The position numbers and the translations under genes are program-made. From Dictyostelium discoideum (taxonomy: Eukaryota), in NCBI GenBank assembly GCA_000004695.1, contig CM000151.3, forward strand, positions 544,001 to 608,000: a DNA stretch of 64,000 nt, written 5' to 3'. Below, one piece after another: positions 11,496 to 12,890 of the stretch. Within the stretch, counting starts at the first letter, position 1. Every line of letters begins with the position of its first letter. The notes below the pieces were generated by a model. It had not been told where the DNA came from, made no database searches, and saw only the letters and a list, made by a program, of their open reading frames with translations.

Positions 11496-12890
11496 ATGTC
11501 AAAATTAGAAAGTGAATTAGCAAAATTAATATTAGAGAATAATAAAGCCAAGGGAATAGACAGTAGTAATAGTCTTGGCCCACCAAGTATTACATTTGGA
11601 GATAAAAGTAATAGTTTTATTGGTACCACTAAAACCAATATAAATAGTATAGGCAATAACAGTAGTGGTAGTAGTAGTAAAAGTTTAAATGTACCAAGTA
11701 TTGTCGTTAGTTGTGATAATGAAAATTCTAATAGTAACTTCAATAAAGGTTGTTGCTTTAATGTAAATAATAATAATAATAATAATAGTAATCTATTCAA
11801 CGATAAGAAACAGCAGCAACAACAACAAGGACCATCACCATCACCATCACCACCATCACCATCATCATTATCAACATCACCAAATTGTAAAAGTAATTTT
11901 AGTAGCTGTAGTGATAGTGGTAGTAATGATAAAGAGGCATTAATATATCAAATGAGACAAAAAAAGATTAAATCATTAGAGAGAAGAGAACCATCAAATG
12001 TACTAATAATAGAGAATATAAGTGAAAAGAATGCACAATTAGTTCAACTATTGGTAGAAGATCAAAATTTAAATTTCTCATTCTCTGTTCAACTTATTAG
12101 ATATCTATCACATTTTAAATCTTTGATTCTAGTTTTTTCACATAGAAATGAGGCGGAATTATGTAAATTATTAGTTTCAAGACAAGATTCAATTAAACTT
12201 GATGTTGATACAATACTTTATTTTGGAAAGGTAAATAATAATAATAATAATAATAATAATAATAATAATAATAATAATAATAATAATAATAATAATAATA
12301 ATAATAATAATAATAATAATAATAATAATAATAATAATAATAGTAATGATAATAATATTTTTTTTATATATTAATTTTTTTAATTTTTTTTTTTTTTTAA
12401 AAAAAAGGAAATTTCAATCGGTTCAATTGGAAAATATCAATTAACAACACCATTTGCAACAAGACAGCATTTAATATCACCACCATTAAGTCCCCCAAAT
12501 GAATGGAGTGCACCAGGTGATGGTATGGAACATCCTCCAACTGATGTTGACCCATTTGCAGTTGTCACAAGAGTTGTAATCGATGAAAATGATGATGAGA
12601 ATTTCAGTTTTGGTGGTAATAATAAAAATGATAATAATGATAATGATAATAATAATAAAAATAAAAATAATAATAATAACAATGGTGGTTGTAATGATAG
12701 TGAAAGTGAAACACCCTCATCTTCATTAGTGGGGTTTTCAACAAATAGTAGAAATAGTAGTAATAATAGTGAAAGTACTTTTGTTAATAGTTTAGATCCT
12801 GAACAATTATCTGACCGATTAAGAAAAGTAATTTATCAAGATAATACTTCAAATGGTTTCCCTTCAATTACTTTAGAGTTTTGTACATAA
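11496..12890 (+). CDS. rcnA: Calcipressin / regulator of calcineurin (RCAN family). Two exons: 11496..12230 and 12408..12890.
   Basis: Exon 2 carries the family-defining motif 'HLISPPLSPPNEW' (FLISPPxSPP), followed by an acidic tail and a C-terminal 'PSITLE' element. Exon 1 ends 'ILYFGK|GTAAAT' in phase 0, and the acceptor 'aaaaaag|GAAATTTC' at 12408 restores the frame. Without splicing, the ORF reads through an (AAT)n tract to a poly-N end and loses the conserved motif. The symbol is inferred from family membership, not from a database hit. Confidence 0.75.
12234..12342 (+). repeat. (AAT)n trinucleotide microsatellite of about 36 units, making up most of the rcnA intron
   Basis: Direct read. 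The repeat starts 3 nt after the GT donor. Confidence 0.9.

Follow-up and report, generated by a model that had tools for sequence, protein, structure and literature searches.

We analysed a window of 64,000 nucleotides from Dictyostelium discoideum (assembly GCA_000004695.1, contig CM000151.3, positions 544,001 to 608,000 of the forward strand), in which the interval 12231-12407 carries a perfect AAT repeat of 36 units. This interval is the already annotated spliceosomal intron of D. discoideum rcnA, a calcipressin (RCAN) homologue, and its repeat is very probably a neutral, slippage-driven microsatellite inside an old, constitutively spliced intron. Both the gene and its intron are already on record, as is the richness of D. 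discoideum in A+T triplet repeats. The present analysis adds the distinction between an intron site that is old and an expansion that is recent and specific to D. discoideum, the existence of alleles with 5, 36 and 40 units, and the finding that the poly-Asn read-through is an accident of one allele. In window coordinates, the gene model reads as follows.

11496-12230, plus strand: rcnA exon 1, 245 codons; the open reading frame (ORF) opens with ATG 11496, reaches the exon end in phase 0 and codes for an N-terminal extension of low complexity together with an RRM-type domain.
12231-12407, plus strand: the sole rcnA intron, 177 nt (59 x 3), GT..AG, phase 0, 97.7% A+T.
12408-12890, plus strand: rcnA exon 2, 160 codons and the stop TAA at 12888-12890, encoding a predicted disordered calcineurin-binding tail.

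Joining 11496-12230 to 12408-12890 yields a protein of 405 aa that is 100% identical over its full length to AX4 XP_645572.1 (EAL71632.1; Q86JH9, UniRef100_Q86JH9), labelled 'modulatory calcineurin-interacting protein', RcnA. The interval between the two segments is therefore the annotated rcnA intron, and the splice from 12230 to 12408 proposed in the initial annotation gives the annotated AX4 protein exactly, colinear with all orthologues including the intronless one. Additionally, AAU89078.1 (405 aa), deposited independently in GenBank under the name RcnA, shares this junction and belongs to the same 90% cluster, which also holds KAM9951479.1 from a newer assembly. The spliced protein scores 37.2 bits with Pfam Calcipressin (PF04847), whose cut-off is 23.5 (E 3.5e-9), over residues 202-342 and profile positions 27-158 of 186, while the read-through product has no match to this family. 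The gene was thus rightly called an rcnA-like calcipressin, a call that PF04847 supports in the spliced form only. In the body of papers searched, none dealt with Dictyostelium rcnA or RCAN, and neither the 405-aa product nor the 121-aa exon-2 ORF had a record under exact-protein look-up. A search for homologues that used the core without its repeats gave 4 proteins and no fragments derived from transcripts, and no credible ORF was found on the minus strand over the repeat.

One residue of exon 1 differs between D. discoideum sequences. Residue 29 is Lys (AAG, 11580-11582) in the window and in AX4, and Asn in AAU89078.1, in the D. discoideum assembly L011 and in the other aligned group-4 orthologues (D. 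discoideum, D. citrinum). The Lys29 of AX4 reflects either a substitution confined to AX4 or an error in the reference.

The intron starts with GTAAAT (GT at 12231-12232) and ends with AAAAAAAAG (AG at 12406-12407). On re-reading the sequence, the GT and AG positions and the (AAT)36 coordinates of the initial annotation were all borne out. Within these bounds, the intron contains the following elements.

12231-12236, plus strand: 5' splice site GTAAAT, with the first AAT unit of the array at +4 to +6.
12234-12341, plus strand: perfect (AAT)36 microsatellite, found by regular expression and by Tandem Repeats Finder (TRF), beginning 3 nt inside the intron.
12342-12357, plus strand: degenerate repeat tail AGT AAT GAT AAT AAT A, with the end of the TRF array at 12357.
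12370-12375, plus strand: ATTAAT, a putative branch-site motif of the yUnAy type, whose branch A precedes the 3' splice site by 33 nt.
12384-12407, plus strand: a T15 tract (12384-12398) followed by A8 and the G of the acceptor AG, read from the sequence.

The TRF array including the degenerate part covers 12234-12357, with 41.3 copies and 96% matches. The pure repeat accounts for 108 of the 177 nt (61%), or 70% of the intron with the degenerate tail; the intron does carry (AAT)36, but its description as made almost entirely of repeat was overstated. (AAT)36 is the longest AAT run within the 64-kb window. A perfect array of 36 units is far beyond chance and is therefore a slippage product. An assembly artefact was also considered as the source of the repeat length and was ruled out by the identical 177-nt intron in the independent assembly L011 (GCA_054883475.1).

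To place the intron in the related loci, we required that the spliced translation equal the deposited protein; the D. dimigraforme intron was read directly from the sequence. The loci compared are listed below.

D. discoideum AX4 (window): intron of 177 nt, longest AAT run 36 units.
D. discoideum L011: intron of 177 nt, longest AAT run 36 units.
D. discoideum L001, assembly GCA_054859385.1: intron of 167 nt, longest AAT run 40 units.
D. discoideum L002, assembly GCA_054859355.1: intron of 79 nt, longest AAT run 5 units.
D. citrinum L003: intron of 76 nt, longest AAT run 3 units.
D. citrinum L004: intron of 73 nt, longest AAT run 3 units.
D. dimigraforme L012: intron of 95 nt, longest AAT run 2 units.
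D. purpureum L005: intron of 75 nt, longest AAT run 3 units.
P. violaceum L006: intron of 54 nt, longest AAT run 2 units.
C. fasciculata L010: intron of 74 nt, longest AAT run 1 unit.
T. lacteum L007 (3001-3753): intronless rcnA orthologue, one uninterrupted ORF.

A GT..AG intron lies at the same codon boundary, in phase 0 after Y-(F/Y)-G-K, in AX4 and in 9 further loci, representing 6 species. The intronless gene of T. lacteum is colinear with them at IYYGKELPP, and none of the orthologues has extra residues at the junction. Because the site is common to all intron-bearing loci and the T. lacteum gene is colinear with them, the intron site is old within Dictyostelia, with one loss, and the intronless T. 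lacteum gene probably reflects intron loss in that lineage. Furthermore, the exon 5/6 boundary of human RCAN1 (...LYFAQ/TLHIG...) may correspond to the Dictyostelium boundary (...LYFGK/EISIG..., 12228-12410), which would make the site older than Amoebozoa.

At the D. dimigraforme locus L012 4208-4764 (GCA_054859025.1), only a 5'-truncated rcnA-like copy is found; its homology begins at ...VSRQDSIKLDVDTILYFGK, preceded by low-complexity non-coding DNA, and the copy lacks the conserved C-terminus (DPEQL...PSITLEFCT). The deposited 167-aa model (P0014) looks artificial. It may represent a pseudogene or a second copy, or stem from a problem in the assembly.

The repeat itself behaves differently from the site. 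Across four D. discoideum assemblies, the AAT run numbers 5, 36, 36 and 40 units, as expected from the length polymorphism predicted at the outset, while the other species have at most 3 units in introns of 54-95 nt. In the unique flanking exon sequence, AX4 is 99.0-99.5% identical to L001 and L002, 100% identical to L011 and 94-96% identical to D. citrinum; given the identity with L001 and L002, the repeat variation lies within one species. Over 7 kb, the window shares 99.5% identity with L011, and the two introns do not differ. In the alignment, the length difference is a single block of AAT units placed directly after GTA, and the interrupted tail units of the AX4 repeat are also seen in the short (AAT)5 allele of L002. 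Since the difference is one such block and the relatives have a short seed, the comparison indicates that a seed of 2-3 units is ancestral and that the expansion happened recently, within D. discoideum. Alleles that differ 8-fold in repeat number coexist with ~99% identical exons and an intact ORF.

At the 5' splice site, AX4, L011, L002 and D. citrinum carry GTAAAT and L001 carries GTAAAA; D. dimigraforme, D. purpureum and P. violaceum share GTAAGT, and C. fasciculata has GTATGT. Upstream of the acceptor, 9 of 10 orthologous introns have a TTAAT whose branch A precedes the AG by 22-33 nt, and the nearest one in D. dimigraforme lies at 40 nt. AX4 has a second TTAAT at 12380-12384, and the read-through stop TAA (12372-12374) sits inside the first motif. 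TTAAT may be used as the branch site, on a motif that is weakly informative in a sequence of 90% A+T. The T-run followed by an A-run and G is kept in D. discoideum and D. citrinum, and a T-run precedes the AG in most orthologous introns. The AX4 repeat sits between the 5' splice site and the block formed by the branch-like motif, the T-tract and the AG, and leaves that block intact; positions +4 to +6 of the 5' splice site are the sole signal touched by repeat dynamics. Moreover, the RNA of 12211-12427 has a minimum free energy of -9.7 kcal/mol, compared with -23.7 +/- 3.1 kcal/mol for shuffled sequences (z = +4.5, less structured). As the intron RNA is predicted to fold worse than its shuffles, the repeat would behave as an unstructured spacer. 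No Rfam family or tRNA was found within the window, and a scan for bacterial-type promoters and terminators, irrelevant to a eukaryote, gave background levels.

Retention of the intron in AX4 or L011 would extend exon 1 by V-N36-SNDNNIFFIY up to TAA at 12372-12374, for a total of 292 aa. For the AX4 allele, this agrees with the predicted retention product, a poly-Asn-ended protein without SPPxSPP; the product would also be devoid of every other recognisable docking motif. The frame differs in the other alleles. The L001 intron begins GTAAAATAA, and its read-through is VK followed by a stop (GTA AAA TAA); the L002 read-through is VNNNNNDSNNIKFIY followed by a stop. The introns of 167, 79, 76 and 73 nt are not multiples of 3, and the same holds for most orthologous introns. 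Given that the 40-unit allele stops after two codons, the poly-Asn read-through is an accident of one allele and not a conserved feature.

The position of the intron was related to the protein with an AlphaFold2 model of RcnA, built from 11 dictyostelid sequences, and with an alignment of 13 dictyostelid sequences for motif conservation. The features concerned are given below.

12000-12224, plus strand: RRM-like beta-alpha-beta-beta-alpha-beta core, residues 169-243, predicted by AlphaFold2 with a predicted local distance difference test score (pLDDT) of 83-92.
12441-12452, plus strand: LTTP, residues 257-260, LxxP/LxVP-like, upstream of the SP repeat, within QLTTPF at 256-261.
12471-12497, plus strand: LISPPLSPP, residues 267-275, the family signature, invariant in 13 of 13 dictyostelid sequences.
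12861-12878, plus strand: PSITLE, residues 397-402, a PxIxIT-like docking motif by pattern match, 3 residues from the C-terminus.

The model is confident only at residues ~143-255 (pLDDT 70-92), with strands predicted at 169-173, 198-204, 209-214 and 240-243 and helices at 177-188 and 217-229. Over most of residues 262-405, encoded by exon 2 and predicted to be disordered, the pLDDT is below 50. Foldseek matches listed against the PDB were almost all RRM domains, with modest E-values of 3e-3 to 3e-2; among them is 1WEY, the RRM of human calcipressin-1 (probability 0.99, E 7.8e-3, 20% identity). PDB searches by sequence, with the protein and with the family alignment, returned a poly-Asn artefact or nothing. 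In the AlphaFold2 model, the intron falls 2 residues past the last RRM strand ILYF (ILYF-GK/E), at the boundary between the folded domain and the disordered tail.

As the initial annotation had noted, the calcipressin signature lies downstream of the intron, and all recognisable docking motifs indeed sit in exon 2. HLISPPLSPPNEW is encoded at 12468-12509, 3' of the intron, with HLISPPLSPP at residues 266-275 (12468-12497); the RCAN signature FLISPPxSPP has been described (PMC3896409; PMC7458460). Q256, L257, P260 and F261 are invariant in 13 of 13 dictyostelid sequences, as are P397, S398, I399, E402, F403 and C404 around the last motif. The human RCAN1 counterparts are 96-LAPP-99 for LTTP and 154-PSVVVH-159 for the PxIxIT-like motif (PMC7458460), and the LxxP-like motif, the signature and the PxIxIT-like motif of RcnA follow the same order as in human RCAN1 (PMC7458460). 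Similar to human RCAN1 and the PF04847 family, RcnA thus has an RRM-type domain and then a disordered tail with LxxP-like, (F/H)LISPPxSPP and PxIxIT-like motifs in order. In contrast, RcnA has a low-complexity N-terminal extension of ~140 residues, found only in group-4 dictyostelids, and its tail has poly-Asn insertions and no TxxP motif; it has no sequence-level match to any PDB chain. The protein ends ...PSITLEFCT, 3 residues after PSITLE, where no TxxP motif follows. TxxP, an active-site-blocking motif C-terminal to PxIxIT, is defined for human RCAN1 as a vertebrate feature (PMC7458460) and lies outside the Pfam definition of PF04847. The exon-2 motifs presumably dock calcineurin. Since the unspliced message would encode the RRM-like part without the docking motifs, splicing is probably needed for a functional RCAN.

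Repeats of this kind are abundant in the genome. According to PMC3188802, which summarises Eichinger 2005, ~11% of the D. discoideum genome consists of simple repeats, with 1,436 repeats above 100 bp in length, or about one in every 24 kb. They are biased to units of 3 and 6 nt, are slippage hotspots, and vary equally in coding and non-coding DNA, consistent with mutation and drift (PMC7466956; PMC9234386). The rcnA repeat resembles other D. discoideum simple-sequence repeats in being a perfect, A+T-only triplet array that exceeds 100 bp and differs in length from strain to strain. The window holds 15 AAT/ATT runs of at least 8 units, of which 10 lie in the Asn frame of long ORFs and are probably coding; whereas most long AAT runs in the window are coding poly-Asn, the rcnA repeat is intronic. 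The usual coding context is exemplified by an ORF with a DOT1 domain at 19034-24598 (1,845 aa from ATG 19064), which contains five AAT runs of 8-24 units in the Asn frame. A second inferred intron with an AAT array occurs 38 kb away, at 50038-50168 (GTAAAA...TTTCAG, 131 nt, 95% A+T), where positions 50059-50118 form a perfect (AAT)20. The host gene is ComC-like, and its exons span 49945-50037, 50169-50297 and 50395-53179; removal of the intron keeps the frame, and a match to Pfam LRR_ComC (profile positions 2-115) crosses the junction.

To explain these observations, we propose that a seed of 2-3 AAT units immediately downstream of the 5' splice-site GTA, as seen in the relatives, would have grown by replication slippage within D. 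discoideum to 36-40 units. The added length between the 5' splice site and the block of branch motif, T-tract and AG would be tolerated and the RNA would be unstructured, so the intron would still be removed; at 177 nt, it would remain close to the mean of 146 nt given for D. discoideum introns in PMC3188802. There is virtually no chance that the interval is not an intron, whether as coding poly-Asn of a longer exon or through a wrong gene model or assembly. The Asn frame of 10 of the 15 runs in the window lends itself to such a reading, but in-frame stops follow the rcnA repeat at 12372 and again before 12408, and use of the one further GT in the interval, at 12343, would put the reading out of frame; the coding poly-Asn reading was rejected on these grounds. 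In addition, splicing restores the annotated protein and its colinearity with the intronless orthologue, and the same 177-nt sequence is present in an independent assembly. It is most improbable that the intron-retained mRNA is a functional isoform, consisting of the N-terminal region, the RRM-like domain and a 36-Asn tail, that would act independently of calcineurin and whose tail may be aggregation-prone. The AX4/L011 intron is a multiple of 3, its repeat continues exon 1 in the Asn frame and the resulting ORF spans 292 aa, but such an in-frame register is expected by chance in 1 of 3 cases. The frame is not conserved within the species, given the VK and stop of the 40-unit allele, and several introns are not multiples of 3. 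Moreover, no orthologue has an insertion at the junction, and the product lacks a match to Pfam Calcipressin.

The remaining alternative is that the repeat is a tuning knob, in which a longer AAT run and altered positions +4 to +6 would reduce splicing and increase retention, and strains would thereby set RcnA dosage and calcineurin signalling; retained transcripts would carry the premature stop at 12372 and might undergo nonsense-mediated decay. Intronic repeats that affect expression include the GAA expansion in intron 1 of FXN and the TG/T tract in intron 8 of CFTR, and these act via triplex or heterochromatin, or by altering the polypyrimidine tract at the 3' splice site. The rcnA repeat likewise is a polymorphic simple repeat in an intron near a splice signal; in contrast to FXN and CFTR, however, it is an unstructured AAU array downstream of the 5' splice site, with the branch-like motif, T-tract and AG intact. 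We know of no phenotype or expression effect of the rcnA repeat. A regulatory role draws on the polymorphism within the species (5, 36, 36 and 40 units), on the overlap of the repeat with the 5' splice site, where the 40-unit allele has GTAAAA instead of GTAAAT, and on the location of all docking motifs downstream, so that retention would remove function. We nevertheless consider it quite unlikely, and a measurable change of rcnA splicing, hence of RcnA dosage, by the 5-40-unit variation and the linked GTAAAT/GTAAAA difference very unlikely. The intron is near the species mean in length (PMC3188802), the repeat does not reach the acceptor-side signals, its RNA is unstructured, and the second intron in the window with (AAT)20 and a GTAAAA start suggests that the configuration is commonplace. 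Furthermore, repeat variation in the species is reported to be consistent with mutation and drift (PMC9234386; PMC7466956), and the expansion is recent and limited to part of one species, with an 8-fold allele difference alongside ~99% identical exons. The suggestion in the initial annotation that repeat length modulates splicing is therefore disfavoured, as far as the comparative pattern can indicate.

Several points weigh against the account of a neutral repeat in a constitutively spliced intron. The comparison covers 4 D. discoideum assemblies, and the window and L011 represent nearly identical genomes. AAU89078.1 is either a cDNA or a genomic record, and constitutive splicing and its efficiency are read from the annotation and conservation. 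Neutrality is likewise argued from a pattern. Finally, GTAAAT and GTAAAA at the repeat-overlapping 5' splice site might have an allele-specific effect on U1 pairing. With these points taken into account, a neutral, slippage-driven microsatellite remains the reading that we prefer; the present data give no sign that intronic AAT length affects rcnA splicing, and the feature is typical of the genome and as it stands matters little. If length did matter, wild D. discoideum strains would differ in calcineurin signalling through variation that is heritable and mutates fast. The locus could in any case serve as a natural allelic series relating intronic microsatellite length to splicing in an organism with short introns.

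Elsewhere in the 64-kb window, ComC-like genes form a local gene family cluster. Four ComC-like paralogues are present, at 13800-15788 (minus strand), 39788-42607, 43824-46511 and 50288-53179, and their domains comprise ComC_SSD, LRR_ComC, a beta-sandwich and EGF.

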